Source: Psammoneis japonica (Eukaryota). Taken from it: a stretch of DNA of 64,000 nt. The stretch lies in NCBI GenBank assembly GCA_008632985.1, contig QPGO01000121.1, positions 124,001 through 188,000 on the forward strand, read 5' to 3'. Each line of letters starts with the position of its first letter. Positions within the stretch are counted from its first letter, which is position 1. Of this stretch, positions 34,074-60,696 are shown in pieces. The position numbers were made by a program, and so were the translations under genes. Below the pieces are notes generated by a model. The model made no database searches. It was not told the DNA's origin and worked only from the letters and a program-made list of their open reading frames with translations.

Positions 34074-34499
34074 GGTTGCAACAGTGTTAAGGAGTCTGAG
34101 AGTTGACAATACAGTAAGTACTTCTACCGGTATCTATCCAATGTCAAACACACAGGGAGTTGCAGGAAAAAACGTCTCCGCATGTTTCCACGCGTTTTTT
34201 CCATAAAAAGGCACCAGCCCGCGCCGCAGATAGTCCAGTGGCTGGCTACTGGTAGTGGAGATAGTGCAGAAAGCCACTACCGTATGTACCGGGCGGCCGT
34301 ACTGTACTGTAGCCTACCAGAGAAAGCAAGAGAGCAGACGATTACGACGACTGCCAGCATGCCGCACGTACGTCGTACGTGCAACAGCGAAAAGCCAAAG
34401 ACGTGAGCACTGCTCGTACTGCCGAGTTCATCACCGAGTCAAACTACAGTCTACTAGCTGCTAGCTAGAGCAGGCCCTGCTGCTGCAGTAGCAGCTGTG

Positions 34500-37400
34500 C
34501 TAAGACTGTTATTGAAAGAATATTTTGTTGTACTAATCAGTTACTAATGATCCTAAATCCTAATCTGTGCATTGTGTAAAATGCGTGTGCATCCTGTCCG
34601 CTGGCGCCCAGCTCCTGGTTGCAGCCAATGAGTCCAACACCGTCGCCTGTGGCATCAATCAACTTGACTTTTGGATTCTCCATAGCGCAGTATGTCGAAT
34701 CTTCCGACTTGAGGTCCACATAAATGATCCTGGACCCCCGACCACCCAACAAATGAACCTTGTTGATTTTCCCAGAGACCTGGATTGGCAAGGGCACGAG
34801 GGCTGTGGAAGACAGGACCTCAGAGTCAGACTGCCTCATTGAAGACAGCTCATCTGAAAGAGCTTCAAGGCGCTTGTAGACGTCACGGAGTTCATCATCG
34901 CCACCGTGGTTTCCCCCTTGGGCAGTGGCTTCATCAAGGAGAACTGCGTGGAGAGCGTCCATGTCCATGGAGTGCTGTGGCCACTGGGAGACGCAACTGA
35001 GCATCCACCCATTGCTCACAACAGACAGCTGGATGCCAGAAAGGTCCGTGGTGCAAACGCCAGATCGAGCCACAACAACCAACACGACATGATTGGTCTT
35101 GGTGACAGAGTCCTTGCAAGCAGCTTGCAAAACCATGGGCTTGAAGCTTTTCCAAGAACCTCCTTGCCCACCACCACGTGACTCCATCACAGAAGCAACA
35201 CCAGCTCCATTCATGACAGCAGCTGCATCGTTGTTGTTTGCAGGAGCTGGAGCCGACACCGTCCGACGAGTGCTGTCAAGGCCACCCGAGAACAGCTCTT
35301 CGTCGCCGTCGTCGGTGTCTGTGGCCAGATGAAATTGAAAAAAGAACACCGCGCGGCGCGGTCAAATGAAAATGCACGCGTCAGCAACAGAGTGACGTCA
35401 CTCACATTTATTTCGAATGCATGTGCGGACACGGTGATGATCAAAACTCACCGTCAGGGTTCTCATTGCTGTTGTTCATCGTTCGACGAAGATTGAACCC
35501 GGTTTCGTCTTTGAGCCTGTGCAAGCCAGTGCGGAACTTGTCCAGTGGACAGCGCATGAACTCTGCGCGCATCTGCTGGATCTCTTTTGGCGTCGCTCCA
35601 GCGCTTGCCCTGCCATCCATCAGCATCTCCTTCAAGAGTTTGCAGTCGGCGGACCCCTTGCGCCACACTGCTCAAAGGGGGCCGGCGGCCTCAGTGTCAA
35701 GAACCGATTTGGTTCGTTGGTTGAGTTTGGGCATGGTTTCTTTGGTTTTCTCTTTTTTATGAGAGGATTGATGGTGCACAGTCGAGAGTCGTCAAGATCA
35801 GCGTTCGCGTTGACGGGCAGCAATGAGAACCCCATTTTTGAATGGGTCACGGCCAACTTACCTCACCACTGTCCACGGGATGCTCTTTTCAAATTTGAAT
35901 AAATTCCAACCGCCAAAATGAGATTTGAGAAAACACCAACCGCCAACATTGAGAAAGGGCCTCTTGACAACGAAGATTCCCTCAAGACCACACGAAAAAC
36001 GTTCCGAGACCATGCAAAAATCGTTCCCAAATCACACCCAAAACGATTTTCAGCTCCAGAACGATGACTTAGGACCATCTCAACTGAAGAATGAGTGGCT
36101 GAATCCCAAGCTTCGGCGTGTGTTTGCGACAGCACCAACGGCAAACTGGCTCCTGATGTTTATTTTGGCTTTTCATTGGCACATTTCCGTGCGCTTTTCG
36201 TCTGTGAAAAGGCGATTTCATTTCGATTTGTAGAATGAGAATGCTTTTTTAATGCCCCACCAATCATGGATTGTGGTTGTGTAATTCTGCATCACATGTT
36301 GCATGCAAACTGCTGTGTTGGTTGAGCTAAGAGCACGCTTTGGAATGGTTGTTCTACCGTGTTCCGGTTGACAAAACGACGTCCAAAGTTGCCCATTGCG
36401 AACGTCCCGAAGTCACCATTCGGAAACCATGCCCGAATCGCATTTTTTTCGTATTTTCTTCAAACACGACGGAATCTCACCAAAGGCCTCTTCTGATGAG
36501 AACCCCAACTGCGTGAAGACGACAAAACACAATTGTCAAACATGAAACAACCACTGCTCTAGAGCAGCCAGCCAGAGACCAGAGACTGGCTGCTGGCAGC
36601 AGAGACTGGCACAAACGGCACAACAGAGAAAAGACCAAAGCAACACACTGTGGCATGTTGCCAATTACTTGTCATGAGACCACCCAAAGAGGCCGCAGAG
36701 TGCTTGGCACAGACAATCATTCAGAAGCCAAAAGGGTCACCTGCAGTGTGGAAACGTCGGTTCGCATCATGCTTCTGTGCCCCAGAAGAAGCAGCATCTG
36801 AGTTGTGGGGGCTTCTCGTTGATGACGGGAAAATGCCACGAGGTTTTTTGCCCACTCACATGCTCTGCACCCTTTGCTTTCTCAAATTGTGTGAATCTGA
36901 GACAGTCGTTGCAGGCATCTGTAATAAAATCCATGAAGACACGCTGAGAAAATGGGTTTGGGTCGGAATTCAACTTGTTGGACAGTTAAATTTGGTGCGC
37001 ACCATTCCAGATGGGACCCACATGTGTGAAACAAACAGACTGACACCTTGTTCTTAGATTCACTGGGAAGACCGCTTCATTGATGACAATGGCAGCAGAT
37101 GTTTGGTGACACTCGACGGCACTGATTTCAGAATCTACGAGCCATCACCATTTGATCCAATGTGGTTCTCCCATAAATTCCACGGTGCTGGGCTGCGGCA
37201 TGAAATTGGAGTGTGCATTCAGACAGGGTGGATTGTTTGGGTCAATGGGCCGCACCCAGCTGGGTTGCCGGATCTGAACATTGCTCGTGAATGGATCATT
37301 GAAGAGCTTGAAGACGGCGAGATGCATCTAGCCGACGGTGGCTGCAGCGACGGGAGCCAGTGCAGCTTGACTCCATCTGGCCTGAGAAATGCAGACGAGG

Positions 37401-37900
37401 CTATGAAAACAACAGCAAGGGCAAGGCATGAGGCTGTTGATGGATGGTTCAAGCGTTTCGGAATGCTTGACAAAAGATGCCGCCACGCGAAGGAAACACA
37501 TTGCCATGTGTTTCATGCCGTGGCCAACATCACACAGTTGGCCCTCATGATGGGTCACTCGCCATTTGATGTGGATCATTTTGACAACTAAAATTAACAG
37601 CAGAAAGCATGTTGTCGCCAAGATGATGTTGCCGTGAACGTTCCTTAATCTCATTGTCGATGCAACGCCTCGCGAGTCGATCGCGAGCAAAAGCGAACCC
37701 CTCCTCCCCACCACAGGCAGACCCACAGCAGGGCCCTGCAGCACTGTCATACGGTGGGGCCCACAGCATGCGCCGGACTGCATCTCCGTGACGCAAGGGC
37801 GGGTGGCGGCAGCGCGCCCGCCCGGGGATGAAAATGCACCCACCGATGACGCAATTGTGACGTGCGCTTCCCACGCTTTTTCGTGGTCAGCCTTGCGGGG
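34500..37900. mobile_element. PIF/Harbinger DNA transposon (divergent accessory ORF plus transposase), TpA-mutated; ends approximate
   Basis: Two-ORF layout: minus-strand ORF about 35734-34537 with an intron, and a plus-strand DDE transposase; TIRs not resolved. Confidence 0.75.
36674..37591 (+). pseudogene. Harbinger (DDE_Tnp_4-like) transposase, intron about 36994-37057
   Basis: LDGTDFRIYEP, WFSHKF.GAGLRHEIG, WVNGPHPAG..D, LADGGC, RARHEAV..FKRF; positions expected to be Tyr read His or Cys. Confidence 0.85.
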
Positions 37901-37999
37901 TGCAGACAGATGCCGGCAGTGCATCAGCGCATGCATTTTTTATTTCTGATGATTCTGCGCGCAGATGATGGGGATGCGACAGAGATGCCGATGCCGAGC

Positions 38000-40900
38000 T
38001 TCAAAATCACACTCTTGTCTCACACCCATTGAAGCTTGTGGTTGGTTGACTCCATTTCTCTTCAACCAAAAGCACTCACTTTTTCCTCTTGCATGGCAAA
38101 TTTCAAGATTCTCAGCAACAAAAATCAAAAGCACAAAACAGCCCTCTGTTCGTTTCCACGACAGACACACCCAGCATGACAACTGGCAGACAAGATGATG
38201 ATGTTGTTTCCGGGGTAATGCGGCAAACAAACAATGCTGCAAAAAAAGCTGCCGCGTGTCACATCATCCGTGCCATCAAGCAGCAGTGCAACAATTGTTT
38301 TTTCCTGCAACTCCCAGGAAGCATGAGCACGCCAGCAATGACAGAAGCCAGTGCTTTTCGTGACAGCCGGCATCTGGCGGCAAGGCAGAAAGATTTGACA
38401 TTTTATTCAGAATTGAATGATTGCATTGTCTTTCCCGCCAAAATTTTCCGTTCCGGCGGTTGAACATGACGTGTCAATTTTCAAAAGGTCTTGCTCCGAT
38501 TGTGTGCAAGCGGCAGGGCCTGTGGTGTGTGCTTGCTCACATGCAGAGTCCGTCCTCACCATGAAAACTCTAGTCTCTACTGTGGCTGCTCTGGAGGGCT
38601 GTCTAAAAGTTCTTGGAGTGGAGATGGCTCTGTGATTTCAGCTCTCGAAGGTGAGAGCTTCCGTCTCATAAAACTCATCACTTTTTGTCTGAATCTTTTC
38701 CCATTTGACACAGCATTCGAGCGTGGAGCTGATGCTGATCTTTGGATCTTGTCCCAGACAGCAACGGGAAGACACCAGCAAGAATCATTTCTGCACATGG
38801 GCAGCTGCCGCAAAACAATGCAGGAACAAGTCCTCCTCCATTTCGCTTTCACAGAACGTCCACTTCGGGTTGGCGGCACCACAGCACAAGCAAGCCGCCA
38901 CGCCTGGGAACAAACGGCTTGGCCTGAAGATGTTGGTTGTTCTCAGAAAGCAATGAAGCACTGACAACATGACATGTTGAGCTGCTTGCAGTGGCTTCAA
39001 CATCAAAAGCACTGAAAAAGAAACTCACATGTCAGGGCTCCATGGCAGCAGAAGTGCAGGGGCGAGGCTCGACTGTCTCTGCACATGGCTGTTGTGCTTC
39101 CGGCACAGCATCAACAGGCCCCACAGCAAAAGATTTTCCAGTGCTGTCCACTTTAGAATTTGTGTCAAGACTTGACAATCTTTCCGTGTGATTGCTCACA
39201 GAGGCAGTGTGTCCCCCGCTGCTCAATCTCCTGTTCCGTCATGACGTTGATGACCCCTGCTTCCGATCATGCAAAATTCAAAGAAAAACAAACATGTTGA
39301 ACAATCCCTGCAAGGGCATGAGAAACTGCAAGAGACAAGTGACTGTGAAACAGTGAAATGTGAGTAAAGAACAGCAAGCATCGATGACAGCGTTGCCGCG
39401 CAGCAGTGCGCGTGCACTAGAAATCGTTCTGCCCCATCACTGTCCTCTGAATGCCAGCAACGTGTCACCAAAAACAGGCAATGACCAGTGCTCCAATGCA
39501 AAGAAAGACCTGTGGCGCCACTTGCTTTGAACGCATTTGCTGGGTTGCTTGCAACTGCCGCCACCCATGCTGTGATTCAAAGTTGCATCAGTCTCTCATT
39601 CGCTCTGTCTTCCAGACATGATGCAACATGACAAAAAAGCAAATTGCTGCAATGACAATGGACAACAACAGTTGTCAGAACATCCAAGTGGCAACAATTG
39701 CATCCAGCAGCCCATGCCAGCAAATTGTGTGCTCTGAGTGGCAACACCACAGCAGATGGAACAAACGCCATGAGATTGTCACAATGTGCATGTGTTGCTC
39801 CACCTTTTCAGTGATCCATCATGGGACTTGCTGTGCTTCACCAGGAGGAGATGGCAAATTGCTGATGAGGCCACATGGCAGACTGCTCCCAAGCCAAACC
39901 CAATCAAGAAGCCATGTGCTGAACACATCTGCATGCTGCCTCTGGCAAAAGCAGCTCCGACAGCACCCAATGGAACAGGGATGCTTGAAAGGGCCTGCAT
40001 GGTGGATGAAATGGCGTGGAGAGTGCTCAGACTAAACATGAGCTGACAGTGCTTTTCTTTTGTTTTGTTCTTCCAATCTTTCACAACAACACCAACAACA
40101 GTGCATGATCCAATGGCTGATGACAAGCCAACAGGAGTGCAAACAATTTGGAGCAGGCAGAGCTGCTCAAGTGCAACGGGCATGGGTGTGCTTCTCCAGT
40201 TGCAGGCTCTTTGGAGAAGAAACTGCAAGTTGGTCACAGCATTGCAACACTTTCTGCTCAATCTCCCAAATGTTTGGCAGCACCTTGAGCCAAATTTAAA
40301 CTTCCAACTCAGTCAAATTGATGCCGTCAGTGACTCTTGAATCTGTTTGATGGCCTGAACAGGAGCAGCACAGCAGCAAACACAGTCCACTGTCAAACCA
40401 AAACAGAAAATAAAACAGTGAGAAATCCCAAACCACCGCATGCTGCACTGTGGCGCTTGGTGCAAAATTGCGCACGCACTTCACCGTGTTAAAAAATTGA
40501 AACCACGGTGAAAGCATGAAGGAAGCATGTGGGGCATGATGATGTGTGCTTGCAGCTGCACCTGGAGTTACAACATGCACCCTCTCTCTCTGTCATGTGC
40601 TGAACAATGTTTTTCACCCCAAATGTGTTGCTGCATTGGGAGTGAACTGCATTGCACTGTGCAGTGGGCAGTGCTGTGTCGCGGCTTTGTGCTGGTGCCA
40701 AAGGGTGCATTGGAGCAGTTGCTCAAAGATGTTGCATGTTTGAGCAATCACACAAACATGTCATGTTTGCAAAGCCTGTTTCAGCAATTGCTGAAAGATG
40801 CTGCATGTTGCTCAAACATTGAGCCCCATTTGCTCAAGCCTGCCACATTTGAGCAAAAAGGTGGTGTCTCTACAAAACGTGATTCAAGCAGTGCACAGGG

Positions 40901-43900
40901 TGCTGTTGGCTGCCAGACTGCACTGCCAGCAATGCCCCATGTCATGCACATGTGCACGCCAGAATGTTTTTGAAGGGTGAGTGTGCTCATGCCACAGACT
41001 GCTGTGGCTCAGCTGCACATCCCGCATGACACATCTGAAAATTTGCTCATTGTTGTGTGCTGAGGAAACCCAAAAGCAAACAAGAGAACACCTGCTGCAG
41101 CTGTGCTGTGTTCTTCAGTTGGTCCTGACACTGGATCAGCAAAGAGAAAAGAGCAGTGGCATGCACCACTTCATTTTGCCTTTCCTTGCCACAACCCAGC
41201 AATGAGCTGGCATTTGTGTCCACTTGGGAACCCATTGAGAAGCTCATGGCTGAGTTGCACCTGCTCCACCTTTTTGCAACGAAGAACTCATTGGGCACAC
41301 CACACAGTTAAGGGGAGAAACAAGAGCACCATTGCCAGCAGCAGACTCTGGCAGGCATCATGTTGATGAGGTCAAGCCATGTGCCCAGAGCCACTGCCGC
41401 TCCACCCCATGAACTCACAGCATCAGACTGTCAAGTGTGAGACAGAGTGGCAACAACCAACAAGATTGCTCCACCTTCTTTTGGCTGCATCTCTGTGTCA
41501 GACAACATGACACAAGAGGAGGGACAGTCATCAGGATCACTGCAAAGAAAGAGTGCATGGCATGGTTGCAGACATGGGAAATGCAATGATTCAGAGAGCC
41601 CTGCATGACTTTTGGATTGTTGCGTGAATGACTTCAATGGTGCCAGATCAGATGTCCAGCAATTGCCCTGGTGAAACCAGCTGGCATCAACAAGCACAAA
41701 GCCAGTGCAGGACGAATGAGATCCAAGGAAAGCCTTGGTCATGGGACCCCAAAGCCAACTCTCAGGAACTTCTTGCAGTGATCTCCATTGTGCTGCACAT
41801 GACATCTCTGCTGGCAAGGAAACCTTCATGAAAACCACAAAGGCTGTTGCCAATTGTGTCAGATCAGAACATGTTGACAAGGGGGGGGGGCATGGGACTG
41901 TCAAGTCTGGAGCTAGAGCCAGCAACTGTGAGCCCCAGGACCCACTGGATGGGGCCACACAAACCCAGCTCAAGCAGGTGGGGGAAGTTGCACACAAGAC
42001 ATTGCAGCACCAAAAGCAGTCCCAGGAGGAAGTGCTCCAACTCAGTCTTTGCTCTGATCTTGTGCCACTGCACCCAACCACTGTGCAATCAAGTGGAGGC
42101 TCACAAGGGCTGGGCGGATGTTCAATTGTGACATTGGTGTCATTTTCCAGCTGGAACTTGGTTGTCCACAGTTGTTTGATGCAGAAGCAGATCTGGAGGA
42201 GTCCTGTGCACACCATTGTCAACACCAAGCACTTCTGCTTGCTTTTTGTCAATCCTGCCACATGTCCAATGCAGGCTGCTGTGACAAGGTGCACTGCTTG
42301 GTTGGCATGGCTGAAAGACTTGCTGGTCAGACAGGGTCACACAGCACCCTGAATGAGTTTGGGCCATGCTGCAGGACATGGTTTTCAAATCAAATGACCA
42401 ACATTTCAATTTCAGACATTGGGTGGAATCAATCTTTCCTTTCCAAACTGGCTCCAAAAGGGTTTTGAGACTTTTCTCATGCATCATCATTGCGTGTCCA
42501 CTTGTGCCATCTTCACATTTTGTGTTGCAAAAGAACAAAAAATCAGCAAAAATCTCTGCCAATTTGTCCTCAAGAAAGCCAAGCACAGCCTCTTTTCTGT
42601 CTTGTCTTCCAAGTTCAAGTTTGAGCAAGTGACCATTTTTGCAATGTGTCATCCAGAGAATTTGTTCCACGGCTCTTGTTTGGAACAGCAGCAGCACAAA
42701 ACATTTCACCACTCTGACAGCTTGCTCTCCATGTGCTTTTCCTTCATCACACTTTTCTTCTCTTGTGATGAAGGCATCAAACCACAAGGCAACAACACCA
42801 CGTGAAACAACAAATTGAGATGATCCAAGGGACAAACACAGAGTGAGCACTCTCTTTCAACAGCGTCTTTTTAGAAATGCTGTTTGCATCAGAGCAATGG
42901 TCAGCAGTTGCCTCCTGCTGCAGCACATGTGACAACAAAATGGTGCAAACAAGTCACAAGAAGCACCCACAAAATGTAAACTGTGTGCAACATTTCTGGA
43001 CAATGTTTGCCTCATCTAGACCACCCATGCTTGCTTCACTTGAACCATTTGCTTTCCTGCACTGGCTGCAGCTTTTGTGGCACAGCACTTTCTTTGTTCT
43101 CAAACTTGATTGCTGCCCCTGATTTGTTCACTTGTTTTGCATTGCTTGCAGTTTTTTTGTGTGGTGGTGGGGGGAGGTCATGTTTCTTGAGCTGCTCTGC
43201 TTTTCAACAACAAATGGCACCAGCACTCATGAGCACTCACCAAACATGACCACTGCTCAATTTTTTGCCCTGTCTTGGCAGTTTTGCTGAGCTTCTTTTG
43301 CTTCTCCATTTGTTGAATTCTTTTCTTCCAAATGTCACCAAGCAAACCCTTGGGAGGGGGGGCTGTTGTGTGTGCCAGTGCTGTTGTCACATGGTGCTCA
43401 TGCATGAGTGCATGAAGATGGTGTGTGACATGGTGGCAGACATCACAAAGTTTTGTCCTTTTTACAGTGGAGTCATTGCATGAGGTCCCAACCCCTCAGA
43501 TGTCAAAAATGTGGCCACAAGCCAGTTTTCATGCTGTCAAAACTTTGATGTCACTTGACTGGGGTGGTCAGTGACTCCACCTTTGACATCAACTCAAGAT
43601 TTTTCAAACTTCTTGAAACCTCTTTTTTGCTGTTCCAAACATTGTTTTGCAGCTTTTCATTTTCCCCTTCTCTGTGTTTTGTTTGGCATTGTGTGCCACC
43701 TGTGTTTGCAAGTGGCTCTCTAATGTTTCAAAATGACTTTGAATGCTTGGCAGGGCTCCAAACTGCCCTTGACTCAAAACACAGTCACACATGCCTCACA
43801 TGCCAAAGTGTCAACAGATGCCTCAAAAACATCAGCATGATCTTTTTTGTAACCAAATGAGCAAACTAAGATGCACAAAAGACCTTCTCTTCCTTCTTTG

Positions 43901-44250
43901 TCAATTGTTGACACTGTCAGATGCTGTGCCTCCCATCAGGTGCTGTTGGAAGCCATCTTGGTTGGCTGTTGCTCAGTCCAGGACAAAACCAACTAAACAG
44001 ATGGTGAAGGGGGGCACCTCTCTCAAGGTTGCACAATGCAGTGCAGAGGATGATGGTTGCAGCAGGCAGACAACAAGATGTGCCAAAGATGTGAACTGTG
44101 AGAAGATCTCACATTTGACCGCAGATGACATTTTGACCTGATGGTCATGTGTGTCACTCTGATCACTGTTGCCAGAAGACTCAAAGGACATTTCTTCCAG
44201 AAGCAGAGATCGATGACCAGAAGCATCATCCATGAATCAGACTTGGCATT
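38000..44250. other. Degenerate TpA/CpG-depleted sequence of unassigned origin (probably TE-derived)
   Basis: Same composition as the flanking TE relics; no motif I can assign with confidence. Confidence 0.45.
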
Positions 44251-44299
44251 TGACTTGTGACATTCCCTTTCAACCAAGCAGAGAAGGAGGACAAACAGT

Positions 44300-46300
44300 T
44301 GCCAGCCCATGAGGGCCTTGCGACCAATTCAGAATGGATCAGCAGTCAATCCTTTGGCAAACTGGTTGGCGAATTGTGCAGCAGAACTGACAGGCTTAAT
44401 CTTGATCTCCAAAGCCTCAACCTTGGTGCAAAGCCAGTGGTGCAGAATGCCAATGTGCTGGGTTTGTGGGGACAATTTAGGCATGCCAGCAAATTGGAGG
44501 CAAGCAGCATTGTCTTCACACACAACAGATGCTGGTGGGTTGGCAGTGTTGATCGGTGAGGCATCTGTGCCATTGCTGGCTTGTGGGAAGGCTTGGAGTG
44601 GGCAATTGCCTTGTTGCAAGTGTCTGGTTGTGCAAAGACATGTGTGTTGGTTTCCTCCAAGATCTTGCAAAGGGGGATGAGATTGCGCATTGCTTGGGAA
44701 AGTGCGACATGCTTGGCTTCCATTGCAGAAAGTGCTGCCAGGGTCCGCAGCTTGGACACCCAGATGATGGGACATCCCCCACACAATGAATGACACAACC
44801 AGTGTGTGACTTGACAGAAGTGGGGTTTTGTCTGTCTTCAATGCTGAAGAGTCCCGCAAAATCAGCACCAACAAGACAATCAAGCCGATGATCTGTGGTG
44901 GGTGCAAGGATGAGACCCTTGTCAGTGGCACCCTTCAAACCCCAAGGAATGCACTTGACAGCAACAGCATGGGAGGCCTTGGGAGCAAAGGAGAACCAAG
45001 CAACTTGGTGGGCAGTGCAGGCAATGTCCCGGCAGCTGTCAGATGCTGGATGCATCAAAACATGCCAACCATGGAGTGACAGTTGCAAGGTTCATCAAAC
45101 AGTGGGCCTTCAGAATCACTGCCAACAGGTGCAGGAAGTGCAGGAGCAAGAGCTTCATTGCAGCTTTCCATCTTGGCAGTGCACAGCACTTTCTTGATTG
45201 GGCCTGGCCAGGTCAGCAGGAATTGGCCATCCTCAAGTTTCTGGATCTTGATGCCCAAAAAGTTGCCGACTCTGCCTTCATCACGCAGGTCAAAGACATG
45301 GCATTGTTCATCATTGGAGATGCCCAATTTAGCAATCTCAGCTTCAAGTTTTTCAGAGGATGCTCCGGCAAACACAGTGTCATCAACATGTGCCACGCAC
45401 AACACACCCTTTTTAAAACAAAGACAAGGGTCAATGGCAGACTCAATCTATCCTCGTTCAATCAGTCCATTGCGCAGCTTTTGATGGAAGCACTTGGGAG
45501 ACTGGCAGAGTCCACATGGGCCTTTCAACAATTTCAGTGCCAAATCTGTGCACCTGATTTCAGCTGAAAACCTTCAGGAGGCTCCACACAGACTTTCTCC
45601 TTAATGTCAGCTTGGCAAAATGTGGCAGTGTGGTCAACTTGACCAGTGGTCCAACCTTCTTTGAGTGCAAATTGATGACCATTGCATGACCGGTGCATGG
45701 AACTAAAAAAAATCAACACCTTGTTTCTGCAAATCACCAGAAACACAATGCTGGGCTTTGTGCTTCAAGGGTGCACCACCAGGGAGTCTTTTAAGCTTGA
45801 CAGCTCATGCACCAGGTGGCACATTCACATTGTTGGTCAAAGGTGCCATTTCCCATGCACAATGGTGGAGAAGCACATTTGTCTTGATTTTCATGGCCTT
45901 GACCCATTTGTCGGCCTTGTGACTGCACATGGCTTCATGCAGGGATGGCACATCAGCGTTCTTGTGTTTCTTTGTAGTTGCGTGAACCCTGGGATCATCA
46001 ATGTTGCAGGTCTGTGAATCAACACAGGCATCCAGAGTGGCAAGATGGGACAACTGTGCTGCAGTTCCATGCAACTTGTCTTTTGGGTCTGCTGGAGCAA
46101 AGAAAACTTCATCCACGAACCTTTTGGACAGCAGCTGACCCTTGTTTGATCAACTTGAATGGTGCAGTGGAGGAGCTCCCTCTGGAGAAGTGGTGGGAGG
46201 AGGCTCCAGTGTCGTTGGTGTCATCGAAGGAACAGGTTCAGGTGGAGTCACGGCAGGTGGTGGCTGACCTTTGACTCTGGTGGCAGTTCCACAGAAGTGG
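44300..46300 (-). mobile_element. Ty1/Copia pol relic (RT-RNase H)
   Basis: QVDHTATFCQADI..VCVEPPEGF, CVAHVDD (YVDD), CRDIACTAHQ, DFAGLF, ALSAMEAKHVALSQ, ANQFAKGL. Confidence 0.88.
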
Positions 46301-46592
46301 GCAGGACTGGAGGGTCATTGGGTGCACCAGGAACTTCAACGCAGCTCAAGCTGGCTCCCTCTGTTTGTGTTGCAGTCCATCCGGGGTTAGCCAATCATCA
46401 TCTAAATGGACATCTTGACCTTTCTCAAGGGGCATCTGCCCTTTCCTGCACTCTCTCTCTCTCTCAAACAAATGAATGAACAAACAAAATCAGTGAAGCC
46501 AATTTTCCATCAAATTTAACTGACAAGAATGCAAGCAGCTGAGGCAGACGCTGCCAGCTTGGATGTTTGTCCAACTGTTCAACAAATGGCAG

Positions 46593-46593
<1 letters not shown>

Positions 46594-46668
<75 letters not shown>

Positions 46669-46680
46669 CTCTCTCTCTCT
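46594..46680. repeat. (CA)n-(CT)n compound microsatellite
   Basis: Read directly from the sequence. Confidence 0.95.
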
Positions 46681-46799
46681 TGAATGAACAAATGAGCAAT
46701 CTCTCTCTCTCCCCACTCTCATGTGGCAGCCCTCTTGCCAGAGCTCCTTGTCCAGCTCAAGGACAAATGCAACCTGATGCTGCCCCATTCTAGGGTGAT

Positions 46800-49700
46800 T
46801 TCTAAATCTGGGGATGGCATCAAAAACCATGTCCAGGTGGCAAACTTGCTTGGTGTGTCCCCTTTTGGGACTCACCATGAGATGTGACTCACAATTTGCT
46901 GGAGCTTCAGTCATCAGCAGTGCTCACATCTGTTGTGTGTTTGTCCTCCCAAGCAAAGTGCACAATCACTGCAGCTTGTGCTTCACAAGTCCTGTGATGT
47001 GCAACTGCACTGTGCTTCTTCTTCTTCAATGTGAACTCTGGTCTGGTTGAGTTCTTGAAGACAACTTTGTTGTTGCAAAAGTCACCAGTGGTTCACCCTG
47101 CCAGGGAAATTCCCAGCATCTGAAGCTTGCAACACAAGGCTTCAATTTGCTCCATGGTGGTCTTCATCACCATGAACTCTGACCCAAAAGTGGATGACTC
47201 TGGGTTCTGCTGCTTGGAGAGCAGCACAAGATGGGTGCTTGCTGGTTGAGCAACAGGATCTCAGCAGTGTGTGACCTGTGCATCACACAGCATCCAGCAC
47301 AATCAGCGCCAACAAAGCAGGCAGCAGTCATGCCATTCCTGCATGCCTCTGGCACATTTGGCAGCATTGGTTCAGCAACACCATGGCAACATCCCCTCCA
47401 ACCACACTCAGCAAACCAACTCTCATCAAAGACAGACTCAGGTGTTGTCAAACACAAATTTGGACTTTGAGTGGGCCCTCCAGTGTGCAAAGATGTGGAG
47501 CACCTCATCCAGCTGTCCCGCTCATGGTGCTGCAAGGCAGGAGAACATGAGCAAGATGGCAACAAAGAACATGTCACTCAACTGCCCATTGGAGCACCCC
47601 GACAAGGCTTTGGCAACAATTTGCCATTTTGTCATTCAACCTCACTGAACTGTTCAGCTCTGGTCTGTGTCCTGAGGTTGACACCTTCATTGGAAGGTGC
47701 TTGTCAGTCTCCCCAAGTTTTAGCTCAACATCTGCCAATGCCCTTTTGACATGCAAGTCAGAGGACATGGCCCAGTGGGTCTTGCCATCCTCATTGGACA
47801 ACTGGCATTTTCTAATTTGTGCTCCTGGGCACTCTTCCAGTTCACGGACACTTCTGTCCTTCAATGTGTGCACCCTCCTCAGCTCATGAAGCCCACAACT
47901 TTCTGAGGGTCATGGGAGATGCATGGCAAGTTGTGCACACATGCAAGTGTGTGTTCCCAGTGCTTGAAGCTATCAGGCTCAACTGCTGGTTGCATCCAGA
48001 CATCCAGATTGGCTTTGCATGACATGAATCTGGCAGTGTCACACAGAATTGCTGCCACATGCTCTCTGAATTGCTCACCTGATGACTTGAGACCACACAA
48101 GGCTTGGACAAAAATTGCCAGCCTTCCTTCATTCTGCTTGGTGCTGAGCTCCAGAGCCAAGCAGCAGCGTGACACTTTTCCTTGGTCTGTGCATTCAAAT
48201 GGGCATTCTGAACATCCACACTCAAGACTCCAATGGTGCAAGCCATTCTCACATGCCATTGCATGACACACCACCAGAGTGGGTCAACTCTTTTCTTTGA
48301 TCAATTGTTGTCACCCATTGTCAGCCTTTGCGGCACCATGAGCATCACTTTGGTGATCAACCATTTTCCTTGTGATCTGGCACACATTGCCTTCAGAGTC
48401 AATCTGGGTGAAAAGATTCTCTGCCACTGCATTGGCAGTGTAAGAAAAAATCCAGGGATCCATCTGGGAACTCCACATCACATGTTCTGGAGTCCAGCCA
48501 GGACTGGGTTGTTGTTCCAGTGCCCACAGGAACACCATTGCTTTTGCATTCACGAGTCACCAGCAATGACTCTTGCATGAGTCAGCTTGCCTCCTTGTGG
48601 CAGCATGACTTGAGTGGTGAGATGCTTGTCTGGCCCCTCCAGGTGTGTGCTGGTTGGCTTCCTTGGCTGCTGCAACCAGAGTCCAGTTCCACAGGCTCCA
48701 GGTTGTTGTCCCAATTGCTGTCCATCAGATCATCTGGAGCACCAGAGAACTCAACCTTTGCATTCCCTTTTGGGTTGCCTGGTTGCTTGATCAAAGCTTG
48801 ATTGACAGAGGCTGAGTTCACCTGAACAGCTGGAGCAATGAGATCATCATCTAGCATGGCCCACAATCTTTCCAAATGACAGGCCTGCCAGATTCAGGCA
48901 GCATGACAAATGCCATTTGTCTGTGAAATTGTCAGCAACTCCAAACCAATGACCTGTGCACTTCTTTTCATGCAGGAAATCCTCCACATGCTTGCAGCAG
49001 CCCACAGGTTGGTGCCAAACAAAGAGGAAGAAAGTTGAGATGTCAGTGGTGGAAACTGAGATCTGCTCCTTTGGCACCCATCCTCTCATGTCAGATGTGT
49101 TGGAAGCTGTGAAATGCTGAATGGCCCATGTCCATTGGGCACAGTGGGACCACAAGCATTGTGGCAGTCATGGATGCCTTGGCTGGGTGCTGCCAGGGGC
49201 TGCATGGCACAAACACCTCTTCTTGATGTGTCCTGCATTCCTTTCAAATGTCCTTGGTCTGGCCTTCTGCCATTTCCAGTGTGCCATCTGACACAGAGGT
49301 TTGAGGAACACTGGTGCAGTGGACAAACAACATCATGACAGCATCAGAATGATCCTGTTTCCTTTTGCAAAGATGGAACCTGTTGCACCCTCTTCTGTTG
49401 GCAAAGATGCCACTCCCCAGCATCTCACCATGCATCAATTTGATCTTCAAAAACATCTGGTCAGAGCAAAAGTGTCCCCCCCTTTTGACAAATTGAGCCA
49501 TGAGAGGCTTTCTTCCAAACCTTCCATTGAGATGGAGCACAAACATTGCAGACCCCAGCCTGGGTTGTTGCTTTAAGTGCATTTTTGGCATCCGTCAGGC
49601 CAATGTTCCATCTCTTGGATGGCATCCAGGGCATGACAGTTGATGCATGACCTGAGGTCAGCAGCACACATCTGCACTTCCACCACTTGTTGCAATCTGG

Positions 49701-51950
49701 GTGGACATCATTGTCACACCCTTCATGCAGCCCATCTCCCCAAATGTTGTCATGGAATGCATTGACCTGGGTTGTCAAGTGGTGATGCAGAGCATCGCTG
49801 TCATCAGATTCCATGCTAACATGCTTTTGCTGTGATGCAAGCACTGGTGTGCAAGTGAGCAGAAGGGGTGCACCTGCTCATGTTTGTCAGTGTTGCCAGT
49901 TCATGAGTCAGAAAATTGGCTGACATTTGGTTGCACACTGGCACATGGCAGCCCCTCAGCAAGAGGCTTCCATTTTGTTGGAGTTGTCAGTTTCAGGCAT
50001 GGAAGATTGTCCAAGTCATTTTGGCTTGGCTTGTGTGAGTTGAAGACCAGTGCAATGCCTGCAGACATGAAGGAATCCCAACCTTCAAGTCAGGGAAAGT
50101 GATGGAATGGGTGCTGCCCTTGTCAAAGTGTCAAGGAGTGTTGTGGACAGTCAATCCATTTGCTTGCAGTTGATGTGTTTGTTGTTTGGTCTCTGAAAAA
50201 CATGGCCTCATGGACTGGCAGTGAGTGTGGTTGGCCGTCATCCAGCACAACCCACACAGCAGCAGCCATGCAAATGGGTGTGTCATTGACATGCTCATGC
50301 TCTTCAGAGCAGCCATGAGTGTGCCATCACAGTGCAGTTGTTGCTGGAGCACATGACAAAATTAGACCCCGCAGAACAAGTGTCAGCGTGCAAGTCCAAG
50401 TTGTTTGTTGCAATGGCATCAAGCTTTTCAGCTAATGCCAGTGATCAACGCATGTCTTTTGGAATTCACCTGGACAAATGTGGAGTGCCAGCAGGTGCAG
50501 GAATGTTCAATCCTGTGCCATTTGGTGCTGATGCAACTGTTCATTTCTCTTTCCAGGGTTTTTTGTGGGTGCCTCATCCAAATTGACCACCTGCATTGGC
50601 AGCAGGCTCCTTGTCTGACTCACTCAAGTCCTTTGGTTCCTCATCAGGCTTGGATTCAAGTTCATCCATCTTTGGGTCAGCAGGGGAACCTTCTTGGCAG
50701 AACAAGTTTCCTCTTCCTTCATTTCTTCTGAAGAGATGGAGCTGACCCTTGCACTTGTGGTCAGCCTTGCACACCTCATGCAGCTTCTTGTTCTGTTCCT
50801 GTTCTTTGCCACTGAGAGCTTTCTGCTTGTCTGCAGGACCTTCTCCTTCTTGGTGCTGTGCTTGTTGCCACCTTGCTCTTCTGCATTGGTTGCTCTCATG
50901 CTGACCAATGTGGGTGATGACGCAGTTGTTGGCATCACAGTTTTTGGTGTTTTCAACCAGAGTTTTGATGTGCAGCTGGCAAGCCTCAAAATCCACAAAC
51001 TTGGTGGGGTCTCCATCCACAACCACACTCTTCCCAGTCTCCAACCTTGGGTCAGAGACACCTTTGAGAAAGTCAGAGACCTTGGTCTTGCCCACCAGCT
51101 TGTCCAACTCCAGTGAGCTATCACGAGCCTTCTGACAGCACTGAGTGCACTGGTTGACAGCAAAACAACCCCGTCTGGTGTGCTTTGCAGCAGCAATCTG
51201 TGCATGCATGTGGTTCTTGCAGGTTGTGGCAGCAACCAACCATCCCTTTAGCCTGCCTCTTCAAGGCAAAGAATGTGCCAAAACCATCCCTGGTGTTGTT
51301 CAATGGCTCAGCAAATGCCCATCTGGGCCCATCTGTCACCAGCTTCTTGAGCATGTCATGGAGATGCTCACGATCCTGCAAGTGCCAAGCCCCTTCCAGT
51401 CATTTAGCAGTGATCAAGTTCTTGTTGATGGTGGCACAGTCATGGACCAGCATCTCTGGTCACTGCTTCATGTTCCCCAACAAAGTGGGCAAGCAGCAAG
51501 CAGGGCCCCCCCGCGCAGTTGCGCTGCAAGATGGTGTCTCCAATGACTCTTGAAAGGCAGGCCAATTTGGAGGTGCTGCTTGTGCTCAATGGCACTGCTT
51601 GAGTTGTCATCTTTACCTGCCATCTTGAGTTGCTCCAGTTCAGCAAGTTGTGCCGTCCACTTGGCAACAATGTTGTTTCCAGCAGAAGAAGCAGACACAG
51701 GAGCTTGGTCTCACACCCTTCTGTGGTCTGCCACATGTTGTCCAATGCAGCACTGTTCTGGTCCTCAGGAGCATTTGGCTCATGTTCATAAATGCAGATG
51801 CACACAAAGAACTTGGCAATTGTGTGAGTGACCATGGGACCAACACGGCGCTCACCCCACAAATTGATCAATTGCAATGATGCTGTTGCACCATTCATGA
51901 TGCCCATTCCAGGCGCATGAACATCACATTGCAGTGGCTCTGACGAAGTG
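46800..51950 (-). mobile_element. Ty1/Copia relic (gag-PR-IN-RT-RH), second lineage
   Basis: gag LHDMLKKLVTDGPRWAF..RDG; IN FCSDQMF; RT DVQNAHLNA, QALCGLKSSG, ANCCQSLVGVLQWAVE; RH FVGADCAG..RSHT. Confidence 0.85.
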
Positions 51951-51956
51951 AACAAA

Positions 51957-52325
51957 TGTTGGAACAAGTTGGAAGATGGGGAATTTGAGGAACCTGGGTG
52001 TGTTGATTGAAGGAAAGATGTTGTTGCTCTCTGTGTGCAGAAGACACAACAACCCATTGAGAGCAAAAACACACCACCACCAATCTCTCCCATCTGTTGT
52101 GTTTGCATCACTCTTTAGAGTGAATCATTTGGTTTGTCAAGAATGTGCAATCTTGCATCGCATTGACATCACTGGGGGGCACCTGTTGCATTGTGAGTTT
52201 GAAGTTTGCACAGACAACTTTGCAAGCAACCCACAGCTGCACAAGTGGCCAAGGCCAGTGGTGTGACAAGAGCACTGGAAGCCTGTGGGATTCTGGTTTT
52301 GTGCCATTAACTTGCTGGTTCAACA
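51957..52325 (+). repeat. 5' LTR
   Basis: tgttggaac...gttcaaca; collinear with 56701-57087. Confidence 0.85.
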
Positions 52326-55300
52326 TTCACTCAAAAGAATCAACAGCACAATTGTGTTGGTGTGTTGGGATGCTTTGCAGCCTGCGGTTGACTGACTGCT
52401 GAGCACCTGCACAATGAGCAGCAAAGGAAACATCAGAAGTGACAACCAAGGCCAAGGACATGGCCAAGGAAAGGGTGACAAGAGTCACAGGTCCTCTCAA
52501 GCAAAGAAGAAGACCACAACTGAGAAATCCCTGCAATGAAGGTTCATCCTTTGTTGCTGAACAGCAACTCTTGGAATGCAACATGTGAAGATGTCAAGGA
52601 AAAGATCACAAGTGCACACAAGGCACACATCTGGCAAGGTCCATTGAAGATGTGGCACACAAGAACTTCAGCAAAAACAAGCCAAAAGTGGGGATGGCAA
52701 CAACAGCAGTGCCAGAAGCTGACAAATCAGACTGCCAGGAAAAGTTGCTGCAGAGACAACAAGAGGAAAAGGAACTGGAGTTCCAGCACAAGGCGCAAAG
52801 TTTCACAAATGCAGTGACAAAGTGAGGCAGTTCAAAGAGATTAAGACTGTGGCTTTTGTCAAGATGCCAAATGACTTCCACACCAAGTGAATGAAGCAGA
52901 GACTGCAGCCAAGCCAGCGCCACTTGTTGTGCCATGATCAGAGTGGAAAATCCAATCAAGCCATTGAAGCTGATCCAGTCACTTGCTTTTGACTCCATGA
53001 GAGGTCGACACCCATTTCACACCCTTGCCAGAGCAATTTTGTGAAACAACAAGAACAACAGTCATTGAGTGACTGTTTGTTTCAGATTCACCAAAAATCA
53101 ACAAGAGATGCTGCAAGTGAGAGTCTTGGCAATGAGATGCTGGACAAGGTTGTCAAGAATGTCAGGAAGCACAAGAACAGTGCTTGAAGGAAGAAGCAAG
53201 GGGAAATGACGCAACAGCATTTAAGACATGGACAATGCACCTGCTTGTGGAAAAAACAGTGACAACAACTCACACAAGAGCTCAGAGAAGAGCTTCATCA
53301 GAAATTGCAGCCTGGGAAAGGACAACAAAGACATGGGCATGGATGAGATCATCCTTGACAATGGTTTGACCCTCAGCATGGCAGCTGACTGGAGGTCAGT
53401 GCACAATGTGTGACCAGCAAAGGTCAAGATGGACCTGTCCATGAGTGCGGGGGCAGACACTTTAGATGTGGACTGCATCATGCCTGGATGGAGAGACATG
53501 AAGCTGGGGCTGCAAAATGTGACAGCAAATGTTTTCAGTTTGAAGGACATGAAGAGCAAACACCACATCATTGCATGTGATGACCAAGTGGTGGACAAGT
53601 TCTGGCTGCTGGACAAGAAGATTGGCGAAAAAGTTGCAGTGTTTAAAGCCAACAACATCAAAATGTGTGCCTTCACACCAAGCCAGAAGTTCTTTGACAA
53701 TGCAAAAGATCTCCAAGAAAGCAAGTCACATGTGAACATGCTGTCAAAGACAAAGACGAAGCTCAGAAAGAAAAGCAGCAAGAAGCACAGGAATGCATCC
53801 AGAATTGCAGTTCTCTAATGGTGGATCAGAGCTCTGCAGGCTGCACCAAGAGGGAGGTGACAAATGCCAAGCAAGTGCTCAGGCTGTGTTGTGAGGCTGG
53901 AAACTCCAGTGTGAGTCATTTCAAGCCATCAAACCAGGTGAAGAATCTGTGCATCACACCTGAGAACGTGGACAGAATGGCAGACATTTGGGGACCACCT
54001 GTTGACACACTAAAAGGAAAGACAAAATGCCCCATCAACCCTGCAAGAGGAACAATGTTGTTGCAATTCCACCTGAGAAACAAAGAGAGAAGGTCTGATC
54101 ATCTGCATTGACATTGTGGAAGTGTGCAGTGTGAAGATCCTGCACGCAATCAGCAACACAATCAAGTGTTGATCAAGTGCAAGACTGTGATCCAAGAAAC
54201 ATGCTGGCTTGTGCAATGGGTTGGACATGATGCTGCACCAATGCAACATGGCTTCACTCAAGATTGACTTTGTCTGGTGCAATCCTGAGTTCAAGGACAT
54301 GCCAGAAGAAGTGGCACAAATCTCAATCTGCTGTCTGCAAATGCCAGTGACCACTTTCCTGAAGTTGAGTGAAGTGTTGAGACCATTGAGAAGCAAACAC
54401 AAGCCACAGTGCACTGAATGCCATGCAAGACAAAGCAATGCCCAAGCTGAAGTGCAAGCATGCCATGATCAAGAGTGCCATGATGGCAAACATGCACCCA
54501 CAAAAGAAAGGCATGTCCAATGTGCAAAGTCCACACTCTGTTGTGCAAAGAAGAAACCTTGATTGTGACAAGCACTTTGTACATGGCTTTGGTGCATTTG
54601 TCCTGTCCCATGTTTAAAACAACCCAACAAACACAATGGATGTGTGTGGTGTTGACAGCACATGCCTCCAATCATGTCTTTGTGTTCCCAAGGGCAGCCA
54701 CCACACAATGAACCTGCTCATGGGGAAACTTCTGAACCCCTGCAAGTGTGCTGCTGCACCACTGACCAACACGCATGCAAAGGCAGCCAGTCAAGAAGAT
54801 GGCCTCTTCACAAGGCATCAAAGACTTTGAACTTGCAAGAAAATGCAGAGACAACCTAAATGTTGTTGGGCTGCAGGAGTGCACAATGGACAACAAAAAT
54901 GACAAAAATGAAGAAAACAAAAACAACAAAAATGACAGCAACAGCAAAGATGAAAGCAGCAGTGAACACACAAGTGAGTGCAAAGATGGCAACTGCATGA
55001 CCAAATCAGAAGACAACAAAGATGGTGAAGAAGAGCCTGACCCAGAAGATGAATGTAAAGAAGCAGACAAAATGCTGTCAGGTGAAAGGTCCAGCCCCAA
55101 TCATCAACACAAGGACCATGACAATGAAGCACAACAAGACTCTGTGAACAGTCCGATGAAGACCCAAAAATGGACAATCTGTTCACTGAAGACAAGAGCA
55201 GAGAACAAAAGCTGCCAGATGAGGTGAATGAACTGCCAGGTGCAGAGTGACCAGGAGCAGTGTAAGATTTGGTGCACCCCATGACATGAAGTCACACAGA

Positions 55301-56700
55301 CACAGAGAAAAGAAAGTTTGATTTGCAGGAGTGACAGATGAAGCAACAGAAAAGGATCACAGAAAGCTTGAGCACTGCCATCACTTAAGAACCCATGTGA
55401 CTCCAAATCCAGAGGACAACGTTGAATGCAACACAGATGCAGGAATGGCACTGGTGCAATTCATGTGTGAGATCAATGACCAACGCCAATCAGGAAAGGG
55501 CATTTTCTTTGCCCAACAGTGCCTGCTGCACAAAGGCCCAAAAGCATTTGGCCAGAGAGGACATGAAGCCTCAGAGAGAAGGAAATAAAACAGCTGCATG
55601 ATGGTGTGCATTTTGCATCAGCCAATCTCAGTGAAAAACATGTCTCTGACTGAAAGGAAGAAGGCCATGATTGCCCCGATGTTCCTGGTGGGGAGGCAAG
55701 ATGGTCACATGAAATTTCAAATGGTTTGCAATGGAAAACCAGCTGGGGCATGGCTGGACAAGGATGATTTGACTGGCCCAACTGCACTGCTGGAAGGAAC
55801 ATTGATGACAGCTGTCATCAATGAAATGTGGAAGAGTGCAACATGACAAGCGGCTGATGTGCTGAGTGCATTTGTGCTGACATGGATTCTCCAAAAGAAG
55901 GCAGAGACCGCCACATCACAATGAAGATTGCAGGAGTGTTGGTTGACATGCCGGTGGTCATCAATTCCAATCCATGTGGACCACACATGGTCATGGAAAA
56001 GTGGAAGAGAGTCCTCTGCATCCAAGTCATTGTGAAGCAACACACAGAATGTTGACCACAGCTGCTTTGCTGTGGCACAAGCAATTCCGCAAAGACTTGG
56101 AGAAGATTGGGTTTGAGCTCAACTTGTGCAATCCATGTGTTGCCAATTGGCTGGTCAATGGCAAGCAGCGCACCATGAGTTTTCATGTGGATGACCTGTT
56201 GTTGAGCCACAAGAGCCTCAAAGACAATGACAAAATTTTGAGCTGGCCAAACAAGATGTGTGGAAGCCATGGTGAGGTTGTTGCACAATTTTTTAGTGTG
56301 AGGTTGTTGAAGCAAAGCCCAGACAAAAGCACAGCTGCCAGCATGAAATGGAATTTTGTCACCTGTTTCCTTGGAGGATCAGTGAGTGGGCAATGGACAC
56401 AATCAATGAGGCGGGTCTGCACATTTGGGAAACAGGAGAAATGGCTCGTTGCGCTTGTGTGAAGAGTTTTGTTGATCAAGTGGAAAGGATGACAAGTGAA
56501 TTTGATGAGCTCCTTGACTTTGATTGTTGTTGTCATGCAACACACAGAGAGTGCAATCTGTCACACTGCAGTGTTGATGAGGCTGAGGCACTTGGCAAAT
56601 TGGCAAAGAGCACACACCGAAGGTGGAAATGCCAAGCCTGAGTGTGGACATGAAGCCGAAGAACACTTGTGGATCAGCGATGCAAGTGGCAGGAGGAGTG

Positions 56701-57087
56701 TGTTGGAATGAGTTGGAAGATGGTGAATTTGAGGAAACCAGGTGGGTTGAAGGAAAGATGTTGTTGCTCCTGACATGGAAGTGAGATGCTGCGGTCACGA
56801 CTTGTTGAGAGCAAAAAACATGCTGCCAGCACCGCCGATCTCTCTTGTCTGTTTTGTTTGTCTCACTCTTTGGAGTGAATCATTTTGTTTGTCAAGAACA
56901 AACAATTGCACTGCATTGTTGTCACCAGGCACCTCTTGCATTGCAAGTTTGAAGTTTGCGCAGACAACTTCTTCGTTGCAGGCAACCCACAGGAGCCACA
57001 CACAAGCTGCAGCCAAGGCGGGCACAACGAGAGCACAGGAAGCCTCACAGGATGCCCATTTGGTGCCATTGGCTTGCCAGTTCAACA
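56701..57087 (+). repeat. 3' LTR
   Basis: tgttggaat...gttcaaca; preceded by a polypurine tract. Confidence 0.85.
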
Positions 57088-57442
57088 ATGAATGCTACCG
57101 AGATAGCTGAGAATTGGCAAAGACAAGACCAAGTGTTGAACAGCATCAACAGGTGCCACCAGGTAGCTAGAGAAAAACTGCATCGGCGACAGTGGACTAA
57201 ACGGCAACGGTAAATTACTGTATAAATATTTGTGACAGTACAGCTTTACGGATCTGAATATATCTATACCATGTTTTGATTTGTATTTATTTGTGTCAGT
57301 GTCAAATACTCTAGGTTGTCTGTTGTTTGTTCTTTCGTCGCCACTTTTTCAGTTACATAAAGGACAACATTCAACATTCTTTTAGGAAAGCTGCACTCAA
57401 CCGTGCGGAAGAAGGAACAGAGAAAGTTTGTTCACACCAGCG

Positions 57443-60470: not shown

Positions 60471-60475
60471 CCATG

Positions 60476-60478
<3 letters not shown>

Positions 60479-60528
<50 letters not shown>
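60479..60528. repeat. (AG)n microsatellite
   Basis: Read directly from the sequence. Confidence 0.95.
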
Positions 60529-60531
<3 letters not shown>

Positions 60532-60696
60532 TGACTGGGGAAGCCAATCGAATGAGTTTTTGGCCATCGCAGTGCGCTCTCTCAGCAGGGCGATTGACAG
60601 GCAGACGGAGCCAGCGGGAAATGCCCGCCCGCCCGCCGCAGGCACGCAATGCACAACGAACAACGATGCCTTGCGGAACAGAGCAAGGGAATTACC

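Follow-up and report, generated by a model that had tools for sequence, protein, structure and literature searches.

In the stretch of Psammoneis japonica DNA analysed here (64,000 nucleotides, positions 124,001 to 188,000 of contig QPGO01000121.1 in assembly GCA_008632985.1, called below the window), a block at 34,580-57,092 has lost nearly all of its 5'-TA-3' dinucleotides (TpA, or TA where counts are given). Judging from its coding and structural remains, this block is a cluster of dead transposons, with a Harbinger DNA transposon and the remnants of at least two Copia-type long terminal repeat (LTR) retrotransposons. The reading that we regard as highly probable is that, after these elements had inserted, TpA was turned into CpA or TpG (CA/TG) by transitions on either strand, and that in the older part of the cluster the decay of CpG was added to this. 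A preliminary description, made from the letters alone, had proposed a hypermutation that falls on transposon DNA and spares the neighbouring genes, with TA nearly absent over about 22 kb. Both points are borne out by the comparison of the block with its flanks, which are normal: the block holds 100 TA against about 851 expected from the TA share of pyrimidine-purine (YpR) steps in the flanks (log10 P = -259). The hand counts given there are exact as well (2 TA at 50041-50640 and 1 at 35041-35640, against 15 at 58201-58500).

By looking at 1-kb bins, the observed/expected ratio of TA lies between 0.01 and 0.19 in all 22 bins from 35001 to 56001, and most bins of the flanks lie at 0.45-0.85. 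The strand-symmetrised odds ratio of TA is 0.13 at 34580-39600 and 0.05 at 39601-57095, against 0.56 and 0.51 in the two flanks, which also means that TA is mildly under-represented throughout the window (0.51-0.56 in the flanks). Over the same two parts of the block the odds ratio of CA/TG rises to 1.54 and 1.88, against 1.16 and 1.32 in the flanks. CpG is depleted too from about 39,600 to about 56,950, and is only slightly reduced before that; the dinucleotide picture in the preliminary description was right about the loss of TpA and overlooked this second depletion. The two parts are called here zone A and zone B:

34580-39600, no strand assigned: zone A, with 40 TA (odds ratio 0.13), 229 CG (odds ratio 0.71) and a G+C of 0.507.
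39601-57092, no strand assigned: zone B, with 60 TA (odds ratio 0.05), 114 CG (odds ratio 0.11) and a CA/TG odds ratio of 1.88.

Apart from TA, CA/TG and, in zone B, CG, all dinucleotides remain within about 0.2 of their odds ratios in the flanks. AA/TT (1.16-1.25 in the block, as in the flanks) and AT (0.84-0.92) are both unchanged. The share of YpR among all steps is constant at 0.241-0.246, in block and flanks alike, and therefore the changes are transitions within YpR steps. The G+C of zone A is raised to its value of 0.507 as a conversion of TA alone predicts. Taken together, the block has the appearance of normal DNA of this region whose TA and CG were exchanged for CA/TG by transitions. 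The two products occur in near-equal numbers (2123 CA and 1983 TG in zone B) and follow one another at random along the block (runs z = -0.8 and +0.73). Strand-coordinated clusters, of the kind that a processive single-strand deaminase would leave, were considered and rejected, as the runs tests were negative.

The identity of the block comes from few coding remains. Among its 159 stop-to-stop open reading frames (ORFs) of at least 75 residues, three have transposon-related Pfam matches, and the transposase alone is above the Pfam cut-off; 25 further ORFs of the block and of a second, small island gave nothing usable in Pfam at E up to 0.5. The elements that could be recognised are the following:

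36668-37588, plus strand: remnant of a Harbinger/PIF-type DDE transposase (Pfam DDE_Tnp_4, E 3.6e-6), in one frame with an in-frame TAG at 37055.
45058-45764, minus strand: degraded pieces of a Copia-type reverse transcriptase (RVT_2, E 0.0085 and 0.0047, both under the curated cut-off), which include CVAHVDDTVFAG.
47577-48300, minus strand: second reverse transcriptase-like remnant, recognised by the motifs NAHL, ALCGLK and NCCQS only, with no Pfam match.
51957-57087, plus strand: LTR retrotransposon of 5.1 kb, structurally complete, with both LTRs.
55947-56459, plus strand: reverse transcriptase-like ORF of this retrotransposon, with the motif FHVDDLLL.
51957-52325, plus strand: its 5' LTR, with the ends TG...CA.
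56701-57087, plus strand: its 3' LTR, 72% identical to the 5' LTR.
51952-51956, plus strand: left copy of the 5-bp target-site duplication, ACAAA.
57088-57092, plus strand: right copy of the target-site duplication, ATGAA, with TG where the left copy has CA.

The LTRs of the complete element are about 370-390 bp long, and no other repeats, inverted ones included, were found in the block beyond this pair, also when the sequence was recoded as purines and pyrimidines. The motifs that the preliminary description had cited as Tyr codons turned into His or Cys codons, HVDD (in two places), NAHL, ALCGLK and NCCQS, are all present in the translations. As evidence for the conversion of TpA those in zone B are ambiguous: the loss of CpG has the same CA/TG products and can also turn Arg CGY codons into His or Cys.

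The LTR pair and the target site place the change after insertion. Sister LTRs are identical at integration. In a global alignment of 409 columns those of the 51957-57087 element now share 289 identical columns (72%; 85.7% if scored by purine/pyrimidine only), next to 48 gap columns, 11 CA/TG double sites and 50 other single differences. At the 11 double sites one LTR has CA and the other TG, and 5000 shuffles of the columns gave a mean of 0.66 such sites and a maximum of 6. The single differences comprise 22 transitions and 28 transversions; five are CA against CG and two are TA against TG. The target-site copies, ACAAA and ATGAA, show again CA against TG at one position that was TA or CG in the ancestor. 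The loss of TA occurred in chromosomal DNA after insertion, and on both strands. The discordance between the LTRs and between the target-site copies, together with the balance of CA and TG and their random order, excludes an editing of RNA or of a single cDNA strand and weighs against a processive single-strand enzyme.

The direction of the change can be followed in the transposase, which lies in zone A. A full HMMER (phmmer) search found 2570 relatives, of which 150 were listed, and all 150 map by tblastn to 36668-37588, to one frame with one stop. The first 80 listed relatives of at least 150 residues were aligned, columns with fewer than 20 residues were skipped, and a column was taken as a conserved Tyr column if at least half of the aligned homologues have Tyr there. 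In the transposase of the window all four such columns carry His (CAT, CAT) or Cys (TGT, TGC). This agrees with what the preliminary description had proposed, a loss of Tyr codons through T>C and A>G changes of TpA on either strand. Its 307 codons hold a single Tyr, against a mean of 3.5% in the homologues among the matches listed. The decay of Arg CGY codons is not the source of these His and Cys residues, since zone A keeps its CpG. Among the matches listed, 75 of the 80 aligned homologues retain Tyr. The other five have lost it and read HHH, HCC, CCCH, HCC and YHCH at the same columns, where the window has CHCH; the differing combinations of His and Cys indicate that the same ancestral TAY codons were converted independently. 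Intact relatives as poor in TA as the block would have spoken for a native property of the family; instead, 142 of the 150 listed homologues have a normal Tyr content, and in the eight with Tyr at or below 1% His and Cys together reach 9.5%, against 6.5% in the remainder.

Related copies with the same change are found in metagenome contigs. A scan with a 6-sequence transposase alignment as query gave 226 relatives, from which 80 loci were kept. Most of these have ordinary TA (odds ratio 0.5-0.95), and nine contain a 600-bp window in which the TA share of YpR steps is below 0.03. The nine amount to about seven independent cases, as L049 and L054 represent a single locus, and L010 belongs to the same family as L026. 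Pfam searches on the ORFs next to the islands of L028 and L049 held no hint as to taxonomy. CpG is retained in some of the islands (L026, positions 301-1200) and lost in others (L034, positions 1201-3600, with sharp edges), and the converse case is found in L068 and L032, which are CpG-depleted (odds ratios 0.33 and 0.39) with normal TA. The loss of TA and the loss of CpG are separable in both directions, since the first occurs without the second in zone A and L026 and the second without the first in L068 and L032. The CpG loss of zone B, with its CA/TG products and the five CA-against-CG differences between the LTRs, resembles the known decay of CpG through 5-methylcytosine. Such decay is not the whole of the anomaly, as TpA was lost without CpG in zone A and L026. 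Deamination of 5-methylcytosine cannot remove TpA.

At least 400 bp can be aligned in 91 pairs of loci. Eight pairs, picked by hand by rank, were compared, five from one family (L051, L011, L010 and L026, with identities of 95-99.5%) and three from other families as controls. The five family pairs gave the following counts:

L011 against L026: 30 of 55 substitutions are TA to CA/TG, 2 are the reverse.
L010 against L026: 19 of 36 substitutions are TA to CA/TG, 1 is the reverse.
L051 against L026: 21 of 39 substitutions are TA to CA/TG, 1 is the reverse.
L011 against L010: 9 of 13 substitutions are TA to CA/TG, none is the reverse.
L051 against L011: 7 of 17 substitutions are TA to CA/TG, none is the reverse.

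The three control pairs gave 0 of 28 substitutions, 10 against 8 of 124, and 2 against 1 of 32. These near-identical copies form a graded series of TA to CA/TG, and the three comparisons with L026 show the TpA bias of T>C and A>G that the preliminary description had expected. A four-way alignment places the conversions in contiguous, saturated patches. In a patch private to L026 all 20 TA are converted, and in a patch common to L010 and L026 nine of ten are, with identical choices of CA or TG in the two copies; two converted sites are common to three copies and one further patch is private to L011. At the same time 16 TA sites of the shared element (alignment columns 535-850) are unconverted in every copy. 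None of the TA sites of L011 has turned into CG in L026. Between L010 and L026, 19 of 25 TA sites are changed, against 17 of about 1064 other positions, which is a rate difference of about 89-fold.

The right edge of the block coincides with that of a transposon. Dense TA ends at 34577 and is followed by a thinly populated 300 bp, and on the other side TA resumes at 57096. The right edge lies between 57,090, within the right copy of the target-site duplication, and 57,096, where TA is first retained, and this is the end of the LTR element. The loss falls on integrated mobile DNA and not on host genes: the block carries the transposase, the reverse transcriptase remnants and the LTR element, and the flanks, which are gene-dense with long uninterrupted ORFs of eukaryotic families, are normal. 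For an NSF-type ATPase ORF in the flanks the best matches are diatom proteins, with 77-84% identity, and the collection searched contains no near-identical protein. A 274-residue ORF on the minus strand (about 34537-35361) spans the left edge; it has no Pfam match, and TA and Tyr are kept at its C-terminal, low-coordinate end, the remainder being TA-poor.

These data show the direction of the change, its specificity for TA, its action on both strands and after insertion, the absence of CG products, its separability from the loss of CpG, and, in at least one family elsewhere, its spread by saturated patches. Based on them we suggest the following course. Nearly every 5'-TA-3' of the cluster would have been changed, after integration, by a transition on one strand that leaves CA or TG. 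The process would require an intact TA, and one changed base would make the site immune, so that CG would never be produced. It would halt within a few bases of the edge of the transposon. In zone B, the older part, CpG would also have decayed to CA/TG, presumably by deamination of 5-methylcytosine, and CA/TG would be the common sink of two separate processes.

Several observations weigh against this course or narrow what it can explain. The left edge is less sharp than the right one, with four TA at 34,580-34,900. In zone B the coding remnants are too degraded for Pfam, no longer-protein homologues were found for the reverse transcriptase-like ORF at 55947-56459, and the remnants of this zone cannot be polarised. 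The HVDD at 56184 may be native, and at the CA/TG-discordant sites of zone B an ancestral TA is indistinguishable from an ancestral CG. The surviving TA include at least one that is new, the TAG stop of the transposase, which stands where the homologues have Gln (CAG). The window holds no deaminase or other base-modifying gene and no TET/JBP-like gene either; the preliminary description had already stated that the responsible enzyme is not identifiable there. The surviving TA are moreover a biased set in all three data sets: most are YTAR, and RTAY is nearly extinct. Scaled to the flanks, retention is 0.73 for TTAA, 0.55 for CTAA/TTAG, 0.014 for GTAC and 0 for ATAT. For RTAY, mixed and YTAR contexts it is 0.05, 0.22 and 0.48 in zone A, 0.005, 0.044 and 0.43 in zone B, and 0.036, 0.152 and 0.367 in nine metagenome islands picked by eye (L012, L026, L028, L029, L034, L049, L054, L063 and L077). 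The survivors fit a model, suggested by their flanking bases, in which every TA offers two half-sites and T-A-Y is a far better target than T-A-R. The polarised events are not clearly in agreement with it: YTAR sites within the patches were converted too, and the changes at asymmetric sites agreed with the strand prediction in 14 cases against 9. The half-site preference was therefore rejected as an established fact. The context bias of the survivors itself is real.

A process of this kind has been described once, in a rhizarian alga. In Bigelowiella natans, the new mutations of two integrated viral regions are A>G or T>C in 230 of 231 cases, each at TpA, with mutation rates about 1000-fold above background (Mettrop et al., bioRxiv 10.64898/2026.01.13.699255). 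The same preprint reports 324 coding sequences almost devoid of TpA, among which domains of DDE endonucleases and reverse transcriptases are enriched, as well as 124 clusters of windows poor in TpA and rich in CpA+TpG (bioRxiv 10.64898/2026.01.13.699255). As reported there for the DNA of nucleocytoplasmic large DNA viruses (NCLDV) and virophages, TpA alone is affected and becomes CpA or TpG on either strand; the change is confined to integrated foreign or mobile DNA, 1-kb windows are low in TpA and high in CpA+TpG, and both of the enriched protein families, DDE endonuclease and reverse transcriptase, are found in our block. Unlike that case, the host here is a diatom (a stramenopile) and not a chlorarachniophyte (a rhizarian), the targets are transposons and not viruses, the TA odds ratio of 0.05-0.13 is near saturation compared with the 0.45 given for the NCLDV region, and CpG is co-depleted in the older part of the block. 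The words diatom, CpG, trinucleotide and context do not occur in the main text of the preprint (bioRxiv 10.64898/2026.01.13.699255). Beyond what is reported there, our data add the near-saturation, the separable decay of CpG, the base-sharp edges, the absence of CG products, the patch-wise spread, the spared host duplication described below and the context bias of the survivors. Our full-text literature search found no description of the signature in diatoms and one overall, the B. natans preprint. Within that search, the novelty that the preliminary description had suspected holds for diatoms, and the same signature had been seen in B. natans (bioRxiv 10.64898/2026.01.13.699255), so that a process of this type has already been published for a single rhizarian alga. 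By analogy, the process in P. japonica would be a host defence of the B. natans kind, and its targets would be foreign or silenced DNA and not duplications as such.

The chemistry that we tentatively prefer is an enzymatic deamination of adenine preceded by T, in which adenine becomes inosine and is read as G. A deamination of adenine at 5'-TA is the simplest chemistry and accounts for the immunity of converted sites. It has the course A to I to G and the U or T before the target in common with ADAT2/3, TadA, ADAR and the base editors derived from TadA. ADAT2/3 and TadA act on position 34 of tRNA, and ADAR acts on double-stranded RNA. The loop that TadA recognises naturally is U-A-C-G, and early base editors preferred YAC; this resembles the T-A-Y half-site suggested by the survivors, a context preference which they support weakly. 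We know of no natural polynucleotide adenine deaminase that edits chromosomal double-stranded DNA in bounded domains.

Another hypothesis is that the same targeted hypermutation begins with a modification of the T of TpA (for example to 5-hydroxymethyluracil or a further derivative), which mispairs with G or is misrepaired, with T to C as the result. TpA is palindromic and a T>C on one strand is an A>G on the other, so that a thymine modification leaves the same sequence. In addition, 5-hydroxymethyluracil takes the place of thymine in dinoflagellates, with a preference for TpA and TpC. We consider this rather unlikely, as nothing in the data speaks specifically for it, TET/JBP-like genes are missing from the window, and the authors of the B. 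natans study prefer a deamination of adenine, with an ADAT2-like candidate (bioRxiv 10.64898/2026.01.13.699255).

One more question is what marks the DNA that is attacked. The process may sense duplicated DNA and mutate both copies, as in the repeat-induced point mutation (RIP) of fungi, with the opposite chemistry. Fungal RIP depends on duplication, is pre-meiotic and needs a homologue of cytosine methyltransferases. Like RIP, the change described here is a dinucleotide-specific transition hypermutation of chromosomal transposons which acts on both strands, saturates tracts and leaves dead elements with a skewed dinucleotide index. Unlike it, the process in the block removes TpA, through A to G or T to C, whereas RIP creates TpA out of CpA through C to T, and it spares a duplicated host segment in the window, which RIP would be expected to hit. 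The content of the block speaks for a sensing of duplications insofar as all that can be identified is transposon-derived and presumably multi-copy, and so do the edges that match the end of an element and the saturated patches, which are as in RIP. The linked host duplication argues the other way. It consists of 17257-18817 and 20780-22310 (1.56 kb, 92.8% identical, with DUF1275-family genes); the two copies keep 69 and 64 TA, and 5 of their 76 substitutions are TA versus CA/TG, with no TA-specific excess. Duplication alone thus seems not to be a sufficient trigger, although selection on the duplicated genes could hide hits, and the words 'repeat-targeted' and 'silenced' in the preliminary description are to be read as proposals. 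The 16 TA sites that stay unconverted in all copies of the shared metagenome element point in the same direction, and in B. natans a large hypermutable viral region is single-copy (bioRxiv 10.64898/2026.01.13.699255). A trigger that senses duplication seems to us improbable, more so than the modification of thymine.

An assembly or base-calling artefact, in which the heavily modified DNA of heterochromatin is read as CA or TG at true TA and CG sites, is very improbable. Miscalls on opposite strands could in principle yield CA-versus-TG noise between the LTRs. Yet independent metagenome assemblies of several sources have the same islands and polarised changes, the 48 gap columns and 28 transversions between the sister LTRs are those of a truly old element, and the nonsense codon in the transposase is real. 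We know of no sequencing platform with a consistent miscall of 98%. Furthermore, the de novo events in B. natans were called from Illumina data (bioRxiv 10.64898/2026.01.13.699255).

An editing of retrotransposon transcripts from A to I by an ADAR-like or ADAT-like enzyme, fixed by reverse transcription before integration, can hardly be upheld. Retrotransposons are present in the block and the 5'-U preference of ADAR-type enzymes matches TA (bioRxiv 10.64898/2026.01.13.699255). Against it, the DNA transposon and non-coding DNA are converted equally, both strands are about equally affected in zone B, the two LTRs are discordant, as are the two target-site copies, and chromosomal copies elsewhere gain further patches. 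Equally hard to maintain is that no mutator acted at all and that native TA poverty, selection, biased gene conversion or a polymerase-eta-type repair of WA motifs shaped the block: the mild under-representation of TA over the whole window fits such a view, but Tyr is retained by homologues in the columns that are converted here, ancestral TA or CG is implied by the LTRs and the target site, selection is unlikely on dead elements, and the unchanged AA/TT and AT speak against a general drive from A or T to G or C and against WA-motif mutagenesis, which mutates TA and AA, and hence also against the polymerase-eta-like patch repair that the preliminary description had named among its candidates.

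With targeted transitions at TpA as the preferred reading, a wider proposal can be made, which we hold a shade more loosely than the deamination of adenine. Diatoms and chlorarachniophytes, perhaps the whole SAR group (stramenopiles, alveolates and Rhizaria), may share a dedicated editor of 5'-TA-3' in chromosomal double-stranded DNA, guided by the identity of the element or the state of its chromatin and not by duplication. This editor would work in bursts, each saturating bounded tracts some hundreds of bases long, and would halt at the last bases of the element. If this is true, there is a eukaryotic genome defence which mirrors fungal RIP in its chemistry, and a natural adenine deaminase of DNA, or a modifier of thymine, would lie behind it. 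The saturated end state in a diatom, together with environmental contigs that carry the same transposon family, suggests a widespread process. Diatoms dominate marine primary production and include genetically tractable species, and a comparison of genomes for the signature and for deaminase and base-modifier genes, as well as knockouts, become a realistic route to the enzyme. For base editing, a natural enzyme that turns A:T into G:C in double-stranded DNA and has a defined dinucleotide as its target would be directly of interest. There is also a consequence for annotation: converted transposons lose Tyr and two of the three stop codons, gain His and Cys and escape profile searches, and therefore the repeat content of such genomes is likely to be underestimated.

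Some further features of the window can be added. A second small island lies downstream of the block:

59340-60690, no strand assigned: island flanked by the GT61 and MFS genes; its 1.35 kb hold 4 TA, and CG is sparse from about 59,548 to 60,548.

Pfam gave no match for it, nor was any resemblance to the main block found; it carries a (GA)n run near 60,470-60,520. Inside the converted block there is a nearly pure (CA)36 microsatellite at 46594-46665. The flanks encode immune-type domains at 1254-5106, 23444-24397 and 32550-34109, namely LRR-Roc, TIR, a fusion of PARP with GRF zinc fingers, and TRAF/RING, and the LRR gene contains an 84-bp tandem array at 1394-2075.

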